From Candidatus Nezhaarchaeota archaeon WYZ-LMO8 (GTDB taxonomy: Archaea; Thermoproteota; Methanomethylicia; Nezhaarchaeales; WYZ-LMO8): DNA of 37,089 bases. Shown piece by piece: positions 6,923-33,583 of this stretch (position 1 is the first letter of the stretch; every line of letters begins with the position of its first letter). Made by a program: the position numbers and the translations under genes. A model generated the notes under the pieces. That model saw only the letters and a program-made list of their open reading frames with translations. It had not been told where the DNA came from and ran no database searches. The stretch is from contig QNVF01000009.1 of NCBI GenBank assembly GCA_004347965.1, positions 1 to 37,089 on the forward strand, in the 5' to 3' direction.

Positions 6923-8133
6923 TTGCTCTTCCCCTCCTTCTTAGCTTTCTTTGGAACTTTCTTCTCTATGGTCTTCTTAGGTGGAGTCTTGTAAGCCTCC
7001 TTTATCTCTTTTATCCTATTCTTCAAGTCTTCCTTTAATTCGTCAGCCACATACTCTCCAGTAAAGAAGTCAACTCGAGCAGCTATTGCTATCTTTCCAG
7101 CCAATGCTCTAGCTATTTTACCCCTCTGCCACTTAGGTGATTTGTGTATTTCGGGGTACTGGAATATCACGCCATGCTTGGGAGGTTTACTTCCACTTCT
7201 TAGCGCTCTGAAGAGGGCTTTCTCAGCACCTAGCAATTGAATGGTGCTTGCAGGTAGTTTTGCTAATCTTTCTAATCCACCAGCAAGAGCTATGAGCCTA
7301 GCTCCCAAGACTGGACCGACTAGCTCCTTTAAGTTGGGGGCAACTTCGCCCATGACTTCATCTACGTATCTTCGTAGCCTCTCATTTACTTCGTAAAGTT
7401 TGAGGACTATGGAGGCAACGTCTCTTACAGCATCTACGTCTTTTTGTAGGATGTTGGCTCCAAGAGAGGTACCAGCCTCTAGGATCTTGGACATCTTGTC
7501 TCTTAGAGGGCCAAGCTTCTCTAAAACTTCCTTCTTCTTTATGCCATCTCTATGTCCTATGAGGATTAATGCCTTCACGAAATCTTCATGGTCTTTAATG
7601 GTGTTGCCAAGCTCAGGAAAGTGTACTCCATACCACTCTCTCAGCCTTGAAGCTAGTATGTTGAGCACCTTCTCGATTTCATCTATACAAGAGACTGCTT
7701 GAGCTACAAGCAGATCTCTTTTCTCAACAGCTTCAACTATTCTTCTAGCACTTAGATTGAAGGCTACTCTATGGAGAATTTTCAAAACTTTATCTTCACT
7801 TTCATCGTAACCAATCTTCACCGCAAGCTTAAACAATCGAGATCTTATAGATTTAGCCACCTTATTCGGAGCCTCTATTTTCACATTTTGAAAACCTGAA
7901 TTAACAAGAGCTTGTGCAACCTTAGGATCTTCGACTACAAGTTCATCAATGCCAAGCTTTTGAGCTTTCTCACATAACTCCTTGACTTCATCGATACCCT
8001 CCCCTTTACTTAGTAGGTAAAGTTTGTTCACCTGTTCTTCGTAGTCCTTCGGGAACAAGGCCTTTTCGAGCACCTCTCCTTCATCATTGCACAGTAGTAA
8101 GCCCATGAAGCTGCCTACAACGTAGCCCTTCAT
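6919..8133 (-). CDS. nop5: C/D box RNP protein Nop5 (Nop56/58)
   Basis: RLREWYGVHFPEL, APNL..LVGPVLGARLI, PASTIQLLGAEKALF, PPKHGVIFQ, RGKIARALA, Lys-rich tail. Confidence 0.97.
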   Translation of the reverse strand: MKGYVVGSFMGLLLCNDEGEVLEKALFPKDYEEQVNKLYLLSKGEGIDEVKELCEKAQKLGIDELVVEDPKVAQALVNSGFQNVKIEAPNKVAKSIRSRLFKLAVKIGYDESEDKVLKILHRVAFNLSARRIVEAVEKRDLLVAQAVSCIDEIEKVLNILASRLREWYGVHFPELGNTIKDHEDFVKALILIGHRDGIKKKEVLEKLGPLRDKMSKILEAGTSLGANILQKDVDAVRDVASIVLKLYEVNERLRRYVDEVMGEVAPNLKELVGPVLGARLIALAGGLERLAKLPASTIQLLGAEKALFRALRSGSKPPKHGVIFQYPEIHKSPKWQRGKIARALAGKIAIAARVDFFTGEYVADELKEDLKNRIKEIKEAYKTPPKKTIEKKVPKKAKKEGKSK

Positions 8134-27066: not shown

Positions 27067-28158
27067 CTAACTTGACTGCATACTCAATTTTTCGACTATC
27101 TTCTTTAAAAGAAAGTCTACATTGACGTTCTTCTTAGCGCTTATAGGCACTAAGTCGCAACTAGGTGCTAAGCTCTTTGCGAGCCTTACTGAGTTCTCAA
27201 GCCTTGAATCACCTATCAAGTCCATCTTATTAATCGCTATAATCAAGGGTTTGTCACCACCTATCTCCGATATTATTGATAAGGAGCCTTTGAGCTTTCT
27301 ATCTATGGTCGAGGGGGCATCAGATGCATCGATGAGTAGCACTATTAAATCAGCCAATCTTAACTCCACTAGCGTGGCATGAAACGCATCAAGTATTAAT
27401 TGCGGCATTTCATCAATAAACCCAAGAGAATCGACAACTATGAAGCTTCTGCCATGAGCGTTAACCCTTCTAGCACATGTCTCAAGTGTAGTGAACGGTC
27501 CAAGCCCCGTTACTTTGCCCTCCTTCGTTAGAAGGTTGAATAGTGTGGTTTTACCGGATTGTGTGTAGCCAGCCAAAGCAACTATGGGGAGGTTTATCTT
27601 CTTACGTTGAAATACTGTCTTCTCTTGCTTCTTCTTCATGCTCTCTAACTTCTCCTCTATTATTTTAATCCTTCGTCGAGCAAAAGATAGGTAAGCTTTG
27701 TATGGATAGCCTCCAAGCGATCCAAAACCCATTTTTTCACTACCAAAACCTTTCAATCTTACAAGTTCTCGTGCCCACGGCAAGGTGTACCTTAGTCTCG
27801 CAAGCTCTATCTGAAGCTTTGCTTCAGATGTTGAAGCTCTTTTGTCAAAGACATTTAAGATTAAGAGGACTCTATCTAAGATGTCTACTTCAAGGCCTAG
27901 ATCTCTCTGCAATCTAAAGTATTGCCCAGGCTTTAGCTCATTGGCAAAGATCACCGTTTTGATGCCATATTTTCTTAGACTATCTTTAAGCTCTTGAAGC
28001 TTTCCTGGTCCTATTAGGTAGCTTGTGTGGGGTGTCTTCCTTATTTGAATGACTTTATTGACTATCAGGTACCCACTATTTCTTGCCAACTCTTCAATCT
28101 CTTTAAGCCTGAAGTCGTCTTTCATTGAGAAAACTCCAACTATCACTGCCTTCTCCAC
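27067..28158 (-). CDS. hflX: Ribosome-associated GTPase HflX
   Basis: IG.GKL.E, DR..LIL..F..RA.T.EAKLQIELA.L.Y, G1 GYTQSGKTT, FTTL, DSLGFI, AF.ATL.E, NKMD, ISA. Confidence 0.9.
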   Translation of the reverse strand: MEKAVIVGVFSMKDDFRLKEIEELARNSGYLIVNKVIQIRKTPHTSYLIGPGKLQELKDSLRKYGIKTVIFANELKPGQYFRLQRDLGLEVDILDRVLLILNVFDKRASTSEAKLQIELARLRYTLPWARELVRLKGFGSEKMGFGSLGGYPYKAYLSFARRRIKIIEEKLESMKKKQEKTVFQRKKINLPIVALAGYTQSGKTTLFNLLTKEGKVTGLGPFTTLETCARRVNAHGRSFIVVDSLGFIDEMPQLILDAFHATLVELRLADLIVLLIDASDAPSTIDRKLKGSLSIISEIGGDKPLIIAINKMDLIGDSRLENSVRLAKSLAPSCDLVPISAKKNVNVDFLLKKIVEKLSMQSS

Positions 28159-28165
28159 AACGTCG

Positions 28166-28717
28166 TCACCTTAAGATCTTGACCCTCTTACCTCTGCAGC
28201 TAGGCTCAATCTCGATTTTACCTCCTTCAAACTTTAAACCAAATTCCTTACCTTCGTAAAGCCAATCTAAGAATACTGCTATGGCAGCTACTTCACTGTG
28301 AGGTTGATTGGTTATGGAGACGTTGTAGTCAGCTACTTCGTAGAAGTACTTGGGTACTTTTGGACCCCCTACAAGTATCAGTAGCTTATCCTTACCTCTA
28401 ATTTCTCCTATAACTTGAGGAAGAGGAATGCCGTACATGGTCAGGTGAACTATGCAGAAACCCTTCATCTTTAGCTCCTTTATCGTACTTGGAACATTTA
28501 CTCCTGTTTTCGCAGCAAAGCTTCCACCAAACGTCTTATTTACTTGATATATTTTCTTCTCTATGTTTTCATCCTTCTCGTCAAACCAGGCTTCATGGGC
28601 TCCAAAGGCTCGAGCTACTAGTGCTAAGTGAGTACTTATTCTCCTATCTCTTACAGGTCTATGACCGTATCTTAACACGATAATCTTTCTCACACTCGTT
28701 GTTAACTGAGTCAGCAT
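28166..28717 (-). CDS. trm56: tRNA (cytidine56-2'-O)-methyltransferase Trm56
   Basis: VLRYGHRPVRDRRISTHLALVARAFGA, VHLTMYG, VGGPKVP, ADYNVSITNQPHSEVAA. Confidence 0.95.
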   Translation of the reverse strand: MLTQLTTSVRKIIVLRYGHRPVRDRRISTHLALVARAFGAHEAWFDEKDENIEKKIYQVNKTFGGSFAAKTGVNVPSTIKELKMKGFCIVHLTMYGIPLPQVIGEIRGKDKLLILVGGPKVPKYFYEVADYNVSITNQPHSEVAAIAVFLDWLYEGKEFGLKFEGGKIEIEPSCRGKRVKILR

Positions 28718-28761
28718 TTTTAAACTTGTTAGATCAGTGTAACCTTAGGTGGTAGAACTTC

Positions 28762-29289
28762 ATGGCCTTCATAGCATCAGCGCAGTACAGCGAAGAGTCT
28801 GTAGACGTATTATTGAGACTTATTGCTGTTCTTTCTGGTGAAGATGCTGTTAAGGTAGTTAAGGTGCTTTTAAACGAAAAAGAGGTGAGCGATGAAGTTT
28901 TAGCTGAAAAAACTGGGATGAGACTTAATCAGGTTAGGCGTATTCTGTACGACTTACTGGATAAGCACATAGTTACATATCGAAGAGAAGCTAGTGAGAG
29001 AGGAGGTTACCACCTCTACATATGGTCTTTGAATGGAGAGGGTCTAAGGAGGATGGTGAAGGAAAGGAAGGGGCACGTCCTCAACAGGTTGCGTGAAAGA
29101 CTCCTATACGAACAGCAAAACATGTTTTTTGTGTGCCCTAATGGTTGTAACGGGAGAGTGACCTTTGATAAAGCTATGGATCATCAGTTTAAGTGCTCTA
29201 AGTGTGGTGCCATTCTACAAAGCTTTGATAACTCTAAAATCATTGAGAAGTTGAGGTTAAGAATAGAGTCTCTGGAGAAAGATCCTTGA
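28762..29289 (+). CDS. tfe: Transcription factor E alpha subunit
   Basis: wHTH SDE.LAEKTG..LN.VRRILY.L, Y.W, Zn ribbon F.CPNGC...F..A....FKCSKCG..L...DN. Confidence 0.93.
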   Translation: MAFIASAQYSEESVDVLLRLIAVLSGEDAVKVVKVLLNEKEVSDEVLAEKTGMRLNQVRRILYDLLDKHIVTYRREASERGGYHLYIWSLNGEGLRRMVKERKGHVLNRLRERLLYEQQNMFFVCPNGCNGRVTFDKAMDHQFKCSKCGAILQSFDNSKIIEKLRLRIESLEKDP

Positions 29290-29394
29290 AGTTAGCATTG
29301 AATATATGTACTTTAAGCTTAAGGTGGTAAGATGATCAGTTAAAATACGTAAGGTTTATCTCGCCTTAAAGATGTAACGCAATTGTGGATTTTT

Positions 29395-31082
29395 ATGAAG
29401 TATATCTTCATTACGGGGGGTGTTTTATCAAGCGTAGGTAAGGGAGCAGTAACAGCTTCTATAGGCAAGATGCTCCAAGTCAGAGGTTTCTCAGTAACAG
29501 CAATAAAAATAGACCCATAGGCCTTATGGCCGGGTAAACATAAACGTTGATGCTGGAACAATGAACCCATAGGCTCTAGGCATACGCTTAGAGCCGGGCA
29601 TATATGCATGGTGAGGTCTTTGTAACAGAAGATGGTGGTGAGGTAGATCTTGATCTCGGTCATTATGAGCGCTTTCTCGATATAGAACTATCGAGGGACA
29701 ACAACATCACAACTGGTCAAGTGTACATGGCGGTGGTGGAGGCTGAGAGGAAGGGTAAGTACCTTGGCAAGTGTGTACAAATAATACCTCACGTAACTGA
29801 TGAAGTGAAGAGGAGGATACGATCCGTTGCTCAAAGAAGCAATGTAGATGTAACACTTGTGGAGTGTGGAGGTACGACAGGAGACATCGAAGGGCTTCCC
29901 TTCCTTGAAGCTATAAGGCAGATGAGGCTTGAGGAAGGCTTTTCAAACACGCTTTTCGTGCATGTTGCGTTAGTACCAATACTTGAAGTGACTGGAGAGT
30001 TCAAGACAAAGCCCCTTCAACATAGCGTGCAAGAGCTAAGGCGCATCGGTATACAGCCAGACATTATAGTGGCAAGGTGTAAACAGCAGCTTGATGAAGA
30101 TTCAAAAAAGAAGATAGCGCTTTATAGTAACGTCCCCGAGGAAGCGGTTTTCACATCTTACGACGTCGAATGCATATATGAACTGCCAATAGTACTAGAC
30201 GAACAGGGAATGGGCGACTACATATGTAAACGGTTAATGCTAAATGCTTCTAAAGCGAATTGGTCCTCATGGAGAGAGATAGTTAGAAGGCACAAGTTCT
30301 TTAGGTATGAAGTTGATGTCTGCATGTGTGGGAAGTACACAAAGTTAAAGGACTCCTACATAAGCATAATAGAAGCTCTAAAGCATGCAGGAGCTTTCCT
30401 TGAAACAAAGGTCAACATGATTTGGCTCGAAGCTACACAGCTTGAATGCGATAAGGGAATGCCTGAGGAGTATCAGAAGACTCTGAGCTATTGTGATGGC
30501 ATAGTGGTTCTACCAGGTTTCGGTGCACGAGGAGCTCAAGGAAAGATGACCGTCATCGAGTATGCTAGGAAGAACAAGATCCCGTTCTTGGGAATATGCT
30601 TTGGAATGCAATTAGCCGTTGTAGAGTTCGCAAGGAATGTGGTGGGTCTCAAAGATGCAAATACCACTGAGCTTGACCCTTCTACAAACCACCCAGTAGT
30701 AGACCTGCTGCCGGAGCAACACTATGTTAAGGAAATGGGAGGTACGATGAGACTGGGTGCTCAAGCTACTGTTCTTGAACCAGGGACGAAGGTCTATGAG
30801 CTCTATGGAAGACCTATAATATTTGAGAGACATAGACACAGGTATGAAGTAAACCCTGCTTACTGGTCATTGCTTCAGAGCTATGGTATGATTTTCTCAG
30901 GTTATAGCGTTGATAAGCGAAGAGTAGAATTCATAGAGCTCAAGGATCATCCATTTTTCATAGCTACTCAGGCACATCCAGAATTTAAGTCGAGACCTAA
31001 TAGACCGTCGCCTCTATACTACGGCTTCTTAAAGGCTTGTCTAGAGTACAAGCTAAAGAAGTCGATGGCCTCTAATAGCTAA
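29395..31082 (+). CDS. pyrG: CTP synthase, intron-split: join(29395..29518, 29538..29570, 29602..31082), 545 aa after splicing
   Basis: Exon 1 [17 protein letters not shown]...AIKIDP; exon 2 [11 protein letters not shown]; exon 3 [25 protein letters not shown]...GGTTGDIE...KTKP.QHS...GICFGMQ...ERHRHRYE...HPEF. Joined length is 1638 nt. The ORF track sees only 29604..31082. Confidence 0.94.
29519..29537 (+). other. 19-nt BHB-type intron 1 in pyrG mRNA (AGGCCUUAUGGCCGGGUAA)
   Basis: G-ACCC-AU|A-GGCC(UUAU)GGCC-GGGU-AA|A-C: perfect 4-bp helix ACCC/GGGU, two 3-nt bulges, 4-bp GC hairpin. Splicing gives GAC CCA UAC AUA AAC (D-P-Y-I-N). Confidence 0.9.
29571..29601 (+). other. 31-nt BHB-type intron 2 in pyrG mRNA (AGGCUCUAGGCAUACGCUUAGAGCCGGGCAU)
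   Basis: ACCC-AU|A-GGCUCUAGGC(AUAC)GCUUAGAGCC-GGGC-AU|A: 10-bp hairpin, central helix ACCC/GGGC with one A-C mismatch, AUA bulges. Splicing gives AAC CCA UAU AUG CAU (N-P-Y-M-H). Confidence 0.87.
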
Positions 31083-33583
31083 TACGAACCCTTGAGAGAA
31101 GAGTAAGCTCTCTCTATCCTGGTTATAAATCTTCTAGCTGCTTCCTCAGGGTTTGACGATCTTGTTATCGCTGAGCCAACAATTACTATCTTGCAACCTC
31201 TCTTAACTAGTTCATCCACGTGTTCGAGCCTTACACCACCTGCTACGGCTACTGGAACCTTTACGCTGTTCACTATTTCCTCTAAGAGCTCCATTTTCTT
31301 TGTCACATCTCTCTCCCTCATCTGCACACTTATACCCATATGGACGCAAATTATGTCGCATCCAAGTCTCTCTACTTCCTTTGCTCTAGATACGGGGTCC
31401 GGCACATTTATGAGGTCGCACATGATCTTGACGTTGTACTTTCGAGCAGCACCAACAGCGTCCTTGATAGTATAGTCATCAGTGGCGCCTAGCACTGTAA
31501 CTATGTCCGCTCCAGCTTCAGCAGCTAACTCAACTTCAAGCCAGCCAGTGTCAAACGTCTTTAAGTCGGCAACTATAGTAGCGTAGGGAAACCTTCTTCT
31601 AAACTCCCTTACTGCCTCTAAGCCAGCAGACTTTATGAGTGGTGTTCCAACTTCAAGAATCTCAGCTCCTCCTTTGTAGCATGCTTCAGCTATGCTTAGA
31701 CCATCCTTCAAGTATCTTTCATCTATCGCTACTTGAAGCTTAGGTCCTTTGTAAAGTGGTTCTAAGCCTAATTGCTGAAGTTTCTTGTCCATAGGTATTC
31801 CATTATAGTTCCAGCCTCTAATCATGTAGTAAGCGTCGAGCAGCCTCGTTAAATCAACTATTTCTCCTTTTGCAGCTCCTTCCTTCAATCCCTCGCTTAA
31901 GAACCTAGGAGGTAGAGTGTCGTGTGATCTATTGAACCCCTCCCTAACGTTAAACAGCCTTTCTAAGTTGTATATTCTCTCTCCTATCTTATAGAACTCT
32001 TCTTCATCAACGTAGAAACCTGTCGCCGTTGTTAATAGCCTTGCGTAATGCGTTGCCTCATAGGCTAATGTCGAGAATAAGGCGAGCATGGTGTACTTGC
32101 ACACCACTAAAGAGTCTATTACAGCTGAGACATCTTGCAATCTCTTAACGAGCTCGGCTTTACCTTCATAGGAGAGGGGGTCTATGTACCTTGGTATGCC
32201 CAGTATCTCACTCATCACTATGTAAGCTCTCAAGTGGCATCCCCCTCTATTGGATGTTGCGTAAGCCAAGGCCATGCCCTTTGCCCCTCGAGGATCGTAA
32301 GCCGGCAGCTCCAATCCTTTCACGTGAGCAGCTATACCCTCAGCACCTATCATCTTCGCTATTCGATCAACTCCCTCACTTGCAATTCTTCCTAGACCCC
32401 TCTTGCAGGCTGTGTCAACGATAAGCTTTAACAGTACGTCAGCATTACCAAAGCTTAGCTTTAAATTTACATCGCCAAGCCCTCTTAAAAGCCCCTTCTC
32501 ATAGCACTCCATTAAGAATCCTATAGTGTTTCCAATTGATATGGTGTCGAGACCTAGCTTGTTGCATAAGTCATTTGCTCGTGCTATGACGTTTATATCT
32601 GATATACCACAGTTAGGTCCCAAGGCCCATACGCTTTCATACTCAGGCCCTGAAGATACTACTTCCTCCTCTCCAACCTTGTATTTTATTGAGCGAGCGC
32701 AAGCTATCGGACATCCATAGCATGCGGTTCTTCTTACCAGCATGGTTTCAGTAATTCTCTCCCCACAAACCTCCTCTGCTTTATCGAAGAAACCTCGTGT
32801 AAAGTTATAGGATGGAAGAACTCCTGCCTTATTCATCAAGTGAACCAGAAACGCTGTGCCATAGCGTCCAAGGCTATCTCCAGTAATTGGGTTCCCTCTT
32901 AAGACCTCAAGTGTCTTCTTAACCTCTTCATTGAATGCTCTCGGGTTTGCAACCTTCACTTCACCGGTGCCCTTGACTGCTATGGCCTTTAACTTTTTAG
33001 AGCCCATGACTGCGCCCAAGCCGCCTCTACCAGCTGCTCTATGCTTATTGCTTATTATGCAAGCCATTCTAACCTGGTTCTCTCCAGCAGGACCTATGCA
33101 ACACACCTCGACCTTCTCAAGCCCCAACTCTCTTCTTATAGCATCCTCTGTAGCATCGGTTTCAAGTCCCCATATCTTGCTTGCATCTCGAATCTCAGCT
33201 TTACCGTCGTCGACCACCAAGTATACTGGGCTAGAGCTTCTACCTCTGATGATTATGCCGTCAAACCCAGCCTTCTTCAGTTCAGGTCCCCAGGATCCTC
33301 CACAGTTAGAGTCGAAGATCGTGTTAGTCAATGGAGACTTCGATGACACAACGAATCTACCTGATGCTGGAGCTCTAGTCCCTGTGAGCGGGCCGGTCAT
33401 AAATATTAGCACGTTATCCTCGCTCAGTGGATCAATACCCGGCTTTAAAGCGTCAAAGAGAAGCTTTGCTGAATACCCTCTACCGCCTATAAACTTCATT
33501 GCTACGTTCCAGTCGAGATCTACGACCGCTACGTCGCCTTTACTCAAGTCTACCTCTAGTATCCTGCCACTGTAACCACTCAA
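31079..33583 (-). CDS. Fusion: W/Mo aldehyde:ferredoxin oxidoreductase (aa ~1-613) + 3-hexulose-6-phosphate synthase-like TIM barrel (aa ~614-834)
   Basis: AOR motifs [70 protein letters not shown]. Then [51 protein letters not shown] (HPS/KGPDC family). Confidence 0.9.

Follow-up and report, generated by a model that had tools for sequence, protein, structure and literature searches.

The gene for CTP synthase, pyrG, of Candidatus Nezhaarchaeota archaeon WYZ-LMO8, an inhabitant of hot springs, is interrupted close to its 5' end by two short inserts. The first of these (intron 1, 29519..29537 on the + strand, 19 nt) is, to judge from sequence comparison, very probably a pre-mRNA intron of the bulge-helix-bulge (BHB) type, the substrate of the archaeal splicing endonuclease EndA, and it precedes a second one of this kind in pyrG. 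Positions are those of the window, by which the whole stretch of 37,089 nt of contig QNVF01000009.1 (assembly GCA_004347965.1) that was analysed is meant. The indirect tests that were applied, namely those of gene copy number, distribution, insert length, covariation, the micro-exon between the two inserts and the enzymes encoded by the genome, all favour an EndA-type intron, and this explanation is supported by them.

In the proposed mechanism, the exon sequence ACCC of the transcript would pair with GGGU of the intron, leaving an AUA bulge closed by the intron's own GGCC hairpin and an AAA bulge closed by one G-C pair. A heterotetrameric (alpha-beta)2 EndA would cut after the second base of each bulge, upon which RtcB would join the exons and remake the Tyr codon U|AC. 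The same cutting and joining would take place at intron 2, 33 nt downstream. Only the doubly spliced mRNA would then encode the enzyme of 545 residues, while the unspliced transcript would stop at UAG. We infer the cutting and the ligation, and likewise when they occur with respect to translation and what use they may have in regulation. The introns themselves are most likely selfish or neutral passengers, which would be kept because pyrG is essential.

Reading of pyrG starts at ATG 29395 (+) and runs to ...AIKIDP, after which T29518 and A29519-G29520 form an in-frame TAG, at which the unspliced frame stops. A preliminary description of this DNA had stated that a 19-nt insert at 29519-29537 interrupts pyrG, that it splits the Tyr codon (U|AC) of the K-x-D-P-Y-x-N-V-D motif of the amidoligase domain, here KIDPYINVD, and that its retention turns this codon directly into UAG. 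The last statement was confirmed in the reading frame (T29518 + AG) and the other two hold as well: the split codon is seen in the sequence and is remade on deleting 29519-29537, and removal of the insert restores the frame and 13 lost Pfam positions. Exon 1 (29395..29518, +) comprises 41 codons, which include the P-loop GKG, plus the U of the split Tyr codon, and it matches positions 1-40 of Pfam CTP_synth_N (E 6.5e-15). Intron 1 is delimited by a cut after the second base of each bulge; an alternative placement at 29520-29538 gives an identical product. It is followed by exon 2 (29538..29570, +), a micro-exon of 33 nt made up of AC, 10 codons and a U. Intron 2 (29571..29601, +, 31 nt) splits another Pro-Tyr junction, 33 nt past intron 1, and has the same ACCC/AUA start; its elements are ACCC at 29565-68, AUA, a 10-bp hairpin, GGGC and AUA, and its boundary may shift by up to 3 nt in the 5' direction with the same product. 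A second in-frame TAG is met 33 bases after intron 1, inside the intron 2 site. Exon 3 (29602..31082, +) consists of AU, 492 codons and the stop codon and carries the remaining part of the amidoligase domain (Pfam CTP_synth_N 54-265) and the glutamine amidotransferase domain (GATase). On its own it reaches 675.5 bits with the NCBIfam PyrG equivalog model (cut-off 462.75) and is also above the cut-off of PRK05380. The domain set of the CTP synthase PyrG, an amidoligase and a class-I glutamine amidotransferase, is present at full length.

Joining 29395-29518, 29538-29570 and 29602-31082 yields a spliced pyrG of 1638 nt with 545 codons and a single terminal stop. The Pfam positions missing between exons 1 and 3 number 13 (41-53), and they are supplied exactly by the micro-exon and the two split codons. 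When the spliced product was aligned with an uninterrupted orthologue of the same class, 356 of 535 residues (67%) were identical and 4 gap positions were needed, all of them in the amidotransferase half. Because the spliced product is collinear with this orthologue there is no room for a third intron, and the possibility of a third intron in this pyrG was ruled out on this alignment. The earlier designation of intron 1 as the most canonical of three thus needs correction: it is more canonical than its neighbour, but pyrG has two introns and not three.

A stretch of 90 nt that contains a frameshift and two TAG stops in frame is the usual mark of a pseudogene, and the inserts could be taken for junk in a dead gene, either by decay or through an assembly or sequencing artefact. 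The chance of this is negligible, because the gene is single-copy, the inserts are conserved and the exons are under selection. No other pyrG match was found in the 93%-complete genome, in which this pyrG is the sole CTP synthase gene and essential. The same inserts occur in 10/10 genomes of the family and in contigs from several studies, the exons are under purifying selection, with exon 3 alone at the score given above, and the structure of the inserts covaries. Both inserts are located in the same two codons in all 10 of these genomes, which represent four genera, and in each of the other 9 the split pyrG was the only copy seen. The rest of the order is uninterrupted, with inserts in 0/5 genomes (0/1 and 0/4 in its two further families).

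The first BHB motif (29512..29539, +), which is backed by a predicted fold and by covariation over 18 distinct sequences, consists of G29512, ACCC (29513-16), AUA (29517-19), GGCC-UUAU-GGCC (29520-31), GGGU (29532-35), AAA (29536-38) and C29539. The ACCC/GGGU helix, the AUA and AAA bulges and the GGCC-UUAU-GGCC hairpin named in the preliminary description all agree with the sequence letter for letter. The single outer G-C pair that it also proposed is possible in the sequence (29512:29539) but is absent from both predicted folds. For 29505-29550 the fold of lowest energy consists exactly of the ACCC/GGGU helix and, stacked with it, the GGCC hairpin, the 3-nt bulge lying on the 5' side (-12.7 kcal/mol, z -2.6, 0/200 shuffles as good). 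The longer segment 29495-29560, the folding of which had been suggested beforehand as a check, gave -17.5 kcal/mol (z -3.1, 2/200 shuffles as good). Along the RNA, the order is exon helix strand, bulge, inner hairpin, intron helix strand, bulge and outer pair. An archaeal BHB site is defined, in the relevant passage of PMC4090602, as a helix of 4 bp with a bulge of 3 nt on each side, the splice sites lying in the bulges. As the order of helix and bulges in intron 1 agrees with the definition as worded in that passage, its topology is that of an archaeal BHB site. Of the 18 distinct sequences, 15 form all 4 pairs of the central helix and 3 form three of them. The two bulges read AUA and A(A/G)A throughout the distinct intron 1 variants (17/17), among which the hairpin stem that makes up the inner helix h' ranges from 3 to 9 pairs.

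A pattern scan of metagenome contigs yielded 17 further loci with intron 1. Together with the 10 genomes this amounts to 27 loci with 17 distinct variants, the lengths of which are 19, 20, 21, 22, 27, 29 and 31 nt and fall in all classes modulo 3. Cuts according to the BHB rule nevertheless give an identical Tyr-codon junction in every variant. In the present genome, symmetric cuts after the second base of each bulge produce the Tyr codon and a collinear CTP synthase of 545 residues, and the rule holds in 27/27 loci. Alignment of the 18 distinct sequences showed that 96.1% of cells are paired, versus 90.6% in shuffles. Changes on both sides were observed for 3/10 pairs, all 3 among the 5 scored stem pairs; 13 cells changed on both sides, and a covariation score of this size was reached in 0/500 shuffles. 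At hairpin pair 2, for example, 14 sequences have G-C and 4 have A-U; at pair 4, 15 have C-G and 2 have U-A. Sliding the partner by one column makes pairing drop to 50% or less. The second intron, represented by 16 distinct variants of 30-33 nt in 24 loci, has compensatory changes at 6/10 hairpin pairs; its central helix contains an A.C mismatch in this genome and in 3 of the 16 distinct variants.

A stop codon directly before a stable hairpin resembles the take-off site used in ribosomal bypass. Such bypass is known from gene 60 of phage T4. Translational recoding in pyrG, in which the ribosome would hop over the 19 nt or would read through UAG and shift frame, is very improbable all the same. 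A hop between whole codons cannot remake a Tyr codon that is divided as U|AC, and no codon matching the take-off codon CCA lies ahead of the resumption point. Read-through would not keep the frame, given that all three remainders modulo 3 are represented among the lengths of the insert. The features that are conserved are those of an EndA substrate, with a helix of 4 bp, two bulges of 3 nt and a distance of 4 bp between the cut sites.

The micro-exon occurs in 14 distinct sequences in 24 loci. Its 7 variable sites are all third codon positions in the spliced frame, the peptide of 10 codons is invariant and the other two frames hold stops. The search patterns used for the metagenomes permitted variation only at third-position sites; against this caveat stands that all 24 two-intron loci matched and that the 10 genome-derived sequences had been gathered without a pattern. 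The micro-exon is judged to be under purifying selection in a frame that is given only by splicing. This bears on the idea that pyrG is a split gene, of which pieces of 41, 11 and 492 residues are made separately or of which only the 492-residue open reading frame (ORF) from ATG 29604 is used. The third piece does open with ATG and was listed as a separate ORF. The micro-exon, however, has an invariant peptide yet lacks a start codon, the Met in question is simply the residue after Tyr and is found there in uninterrupted orthologues as well (YMHGE), and a protein initiated at ATG 29604 would be without the P-loop and the KIDPYxNVD motif. A split gene of either form is accordingly given next to no probability.

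DNA-run contigs from other studies span the region without gaps and with the inserts in place, from which it follows that the inserts belong to the genome and stay in the DNA. Excision from the DNA of some members of the population, or removal from the RNA by an agent other than EndA and RtcB, is unlikely. The outer helix is weaker than that of strict EndA substrates, and EndA cleavage of intron 1 is a prediction; both leave some room for another agent. On the other hand, 19 nt is too short for a group I or group II intron, no match to Rfam families was found in 28000-32000 and no tRNA at the insert or close to it, the insert is present in DNA contigs, and the geometry is that of a BHB, of which enzymes of the (alpha-beta)2 type accept non-canonical versions as summarized in PMC5829648.

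The enzymes needed for EndA-type splicing are encoded in the genome. Two genes with a tRNA_int_endo domain, one alpha-like and one beta-like, and one RtcB gene were found. The product of the alpha-like gene is closest to 3p1z_B (E 1e-49) and also matches 3ajv_B and 2zyz_B, which we take to be the catalytic chains of solved crenarchaeal heterotetrameric EndA enzymes. The beta-like gene matches the first, EndA-like half of 5x89_A and gives a weak match to NCBI beta-subunit models. Both (alpha-beta)2 and epsilon2 enzymes accept non-canonical (relaxed) BHB sites, according to the part of PMC5829648 that deals with them. An (alpha-beta)2 EndA fits a relaxed site with one outer G-C pair.

Several observations weigh against an EndA-type intron or limit the evidence for it. 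A loose BHB pattern occurs 26,256 times in the genome versus 24,538 times in a shuffled copy. The BHB shape alone is not beyond chance, and the case therefore rests on comparison between genomes. Chance is exceeded by the exactness with which the frame and 13 Pfam positions are restored, together with conservation and covariation. A genome-wide census that combined BHB shape with rescue of an ORF had no statistical value: it gave 440 candidates, and displacing the 3' cut by 1 or 2 nt gave 399-465. Stricter GC filters on this census gave no separation of candidates from shifted-cut controls; only hand-picked strong candidates that were checked by Pfam were informative. The cut rule was also applied to the tRNA introns called by ARAGORN, where 4/4 central pairs were found in 2/15 and at least 3 in 10/15. 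This result is too noisy to calibrate the cut rule; ARAGORN sets intron boundaries without regard to the BHB.

The strict hBHBh' definition asks for an outer helix of at least 2 pairs closing the 3' bulge. The outer helix of intron 1 is one G-C pair, which is invariant in 18/18 sequences and is followed by A.A at the next position, so that the motif is a relaxed one. The central helix does not covary: 3 of its pairs are invariant and the fourth is unpaired in 3/18 sequences. Covariation is silent here because the exon strand is fixed by the Asp-Pro codons, and we infer the central helix from complementarity only. Intron 1 is located 124 nt from the start codon, and with coupled translation splicing would have to outrun the first ribosome. 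Among the contigs listed for the one metatranscriptome run that was searched, which contained 0.21 of the sampled words, none bridges 29515-29601 and none has a 19- or 31-nt omission. One contig of this run, corresponding to 29201-29514, ends 4 nt short of the 5' splice site and is neutral with respect to splicing. The one joint near the site in the metatranscriptome, from 29568 to 29607, with 7 other letters between, a short side of 22 letters and 90% likeness, was rejected, as it reads like the uninterrupted pyrG of another organism.

Separate from its use for calibration, the ARAGORN output reports introns in 15/39 tRNA genes. Some of these are clearly spurious, for example those with lengths of 2, 5 and 875 nt; the number fits an intron-rich lineage.

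Introns in pyrG are not confined to the Nezhaarchaeales. A search of the class covered 56 genomes that are at least 70% complete and revealed an interrupted pyrG in 18 of them, 8 of which are Nezhaarchaeales family members and 10 of which belong to three other families. All of the latter (10/10), Candidatus Culexmicrobium profundum included, have a different intron, located in the Lys codon of the P-loop GKG. This intron forms a near-perfect BHB (GGGG / AAA / hairpin / CCC(C/U) / A(G/A)A) of 21-27 nt. On a tree of exon-3 proteins, a quick FastTree build of 48 sequences with an arbitrary root and with supports left unread, each intron state corresponds to one clade, the carriers of the GKG-Lys intron likewise forming one clade. 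A divergent metagenome lineage (L048, L050 and L052) and a genome titled Bathyarchaeia (L145) have an intron at the DP|Y site and lack intron 2; L145 is placed far from the Nezhaarchaeales family on the same tree. The introns of these four share the frame ACCC/AUA...GGG(U/C/G)/A(A/G)A and have different hairpins. The presence of the DP|Y intron in distant lineages means either that it has an older origin or that it was gained repeatedly at one site. A fourth position came from a phylum-wide survey of 301 genomes, in which cases of interrupted pyrG were taken only from among the matches listed. Re-examination of 5 low-scoring genomes in this survey showed 3 truncations at contig ends, 1 uninterrupted gene and 1 new intron. 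The latter, in a genome from another class of the phylum (G150), is located in the Val codon one before GKG and, as read by eye from the sequence, consists of GCUC / AGA / 5-bp hairpin / GAGC / AUU (23 nt). The NP|Y position, that of intron 2, was found in the Nezhaarchaeales only among the lineages compared.

Introns 1 and 2 resemble each other. They share the exon sequence ACCCAU before the cut and A(C/U)AU after it, as well as the intron ends AGGC...GCCGGGUA, and the spliced junction ACCCAU|ACAU is present at both sites in most family genomes. The shared exon part results from the repeated coding of Pro-Tyr-(Ile/Met), and GGGU results from the need for pairing. The first three hairpin pairs, which are also shared, follow neither from coding nor from pairing. 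Since these pairs are otherwise unaccounted for, it is roughly as likely as not that intron 2 arose by copying of intron 1 into a site that resembles its own. Intron transposition has been proposed for tRNA introns of Thermoproteales, as reported in one passage of PMC4090602, citing Fujishima 2010. The wider proposal that BHB introns have been gained again and again in Thermoproteota within a hotspot formed by the first 55 codons of pyrG, with four positions, that the Nezhaarchaeales pair is paralogous and that further genes are split could equally well prove right or wrong. If it were true, intron 2 would be a protein-gene case of the transposition proposed for the tRNAs of Thermoproteales, and in this lineage the splicing of mRNA by EndA would be a regular part of gene expression and not a curiosity of cbf5.

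Applied to three other genes of the genome, the cut rule used for pyrG brings contiguous Pfam halves together. These are cbf5 (DKCLD | TruB_N from position 17), a gene of the IF-2B family (profile positions 2-114 | 117-280) and the gene for aIF2-gamma (GTP_EFTU 4-80 | 85-187). The genes for aIF5B, HypD (hypD) and ribosomal protein uS5 are probably split likewise. BHB inserts in other coding genes were placed at C1:76635-76656(-), which is the cbf5 intron, C35:6124-6150(+), C77:23751-23782(+), C77:21331-21363(+), C11:16109-16130(-) and C72:142-170(+). In all, at least 5 other genes of the genome are probably split by BHB inserts, some of these being individually no better than probable. The candidates C4:12377 (Nre) and C9:26891 (SepRS) are ambiguous as BHB splits, and the candidate C75 was discarded, as it consists of two adjacent genes and not of a split one. 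A GC-rich, BHB-shaped site of 31 nt (CCAG / UCU / hairpin / CUGG / UGG) is present in the window at 7278-7308 (-); its removal would lengthen an ORF, with 16 codons upstream and 119 downstream. Also in the window, at 31079-33583 (-), lies an ORF of 834 residues that comprises a complete aldehyde:ferredoxin oxidoreductase (AFOR_N + AFOR_C) and a C-terminal barrel of the OMPdecase/HUMPS family. This fusion is unusual and might couple the oxidation of an aldehyde to a reaction of the hexulose-phosphate type.

Should pyrG be spliced as proposed, an essential, single-copy metabolic gene would rely on two splicing events 33 nt apart, and sister lineages would independently have gained introns at other codons of the same gene. 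This makes pyrG a compact natural system for the origin and spread of BHB introns in coding DNA. It also raises the matter of the order of splicing and coupled translation and permits a test of regulatory use. In practice, gene callers will annotate the pyrG of these organisms as a truncated gene or a pseudogene, and metabolic reconstructions are distorted as a result.

A literature search, with subscription journals and supplements outside its scope, turned up no publication in which pyrG has a BHB intron, and none about introns of Nezhaarchaeota. The pair of tRNA-type introns in pyrG is real, conserved and apparently undescribed. In a review from 2023, the section concerned names cbf5 and HVO_1309 as the two archaeal genes known to be spliced and expects more (PMC10485636). 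The cbf5 pre-mRNA intron (Yokobori 2009, PMC2738675) occurs in Desulfurococcales and Sulfolobales, and its splicing is shown experimentally. Like the cbf5 intron, which the present genome also has, the pyrG intron splits a conserved codon of a catalytic region. It differs in its host gene and in its lineage, the Nezhaarchaeales, and in that two introns would be removed from one mRNA, with a 33-nt micro-exon between them, by splicing that is proposed here for pyrG. The cbf5 intron was reportedly also dealt with by Watanabe in 2002 and by Yoshinari in 2006.

The HVO_1309 mRNA of Haloferax volcanii is cut by EndA at a BHB, as noted in the portions of PMC7714728 and PMC10485636 that concern it. 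As proposed for pyrG, it is a substrate of the archaeal splicing endonuclease that is neither a tRNA nor an rRNA. Its host is a euryarchaeon with a homodimeric enzyme, and in these portions of the two papers it is not described as two introns that interrupt the coding frame of a core gene of metabolism. The archaeal tRNA BHB introns, several of which can be present per gene and for which transposition was put forward in the Thermoproteales (PMC4090602, in the passage citing Fujishima 2010), have the same motif and would use the same enzymes; in both cases similar introns at several sites suggest spread by copying. In pyrG, unlike in these tRNAs, the host RNA is a messenger, so that the cuts must keep the frame and the exon strand of the helix is bound by codons. 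The unconventional splicing of HAC1/XBP1 mRNA in eukaryotes is a more distant parallel. There, in the outline given by PMC4090602, an mRNA is cut by a protein endonuclease at two small stem-loops, after which a tRNA ligase, which in animals is RtcB, connects the exons and the reading frame is altered, all of which is similar to what is proposed for pyrG, but the nuclease is IRE1 and not EndA, and the splicing is regulated by stress. In conclusion, the pyrG introns are of a kind that is already known from the cbf5 pre-mRNA intron, and it is the membership of pyrG in this group that is new.

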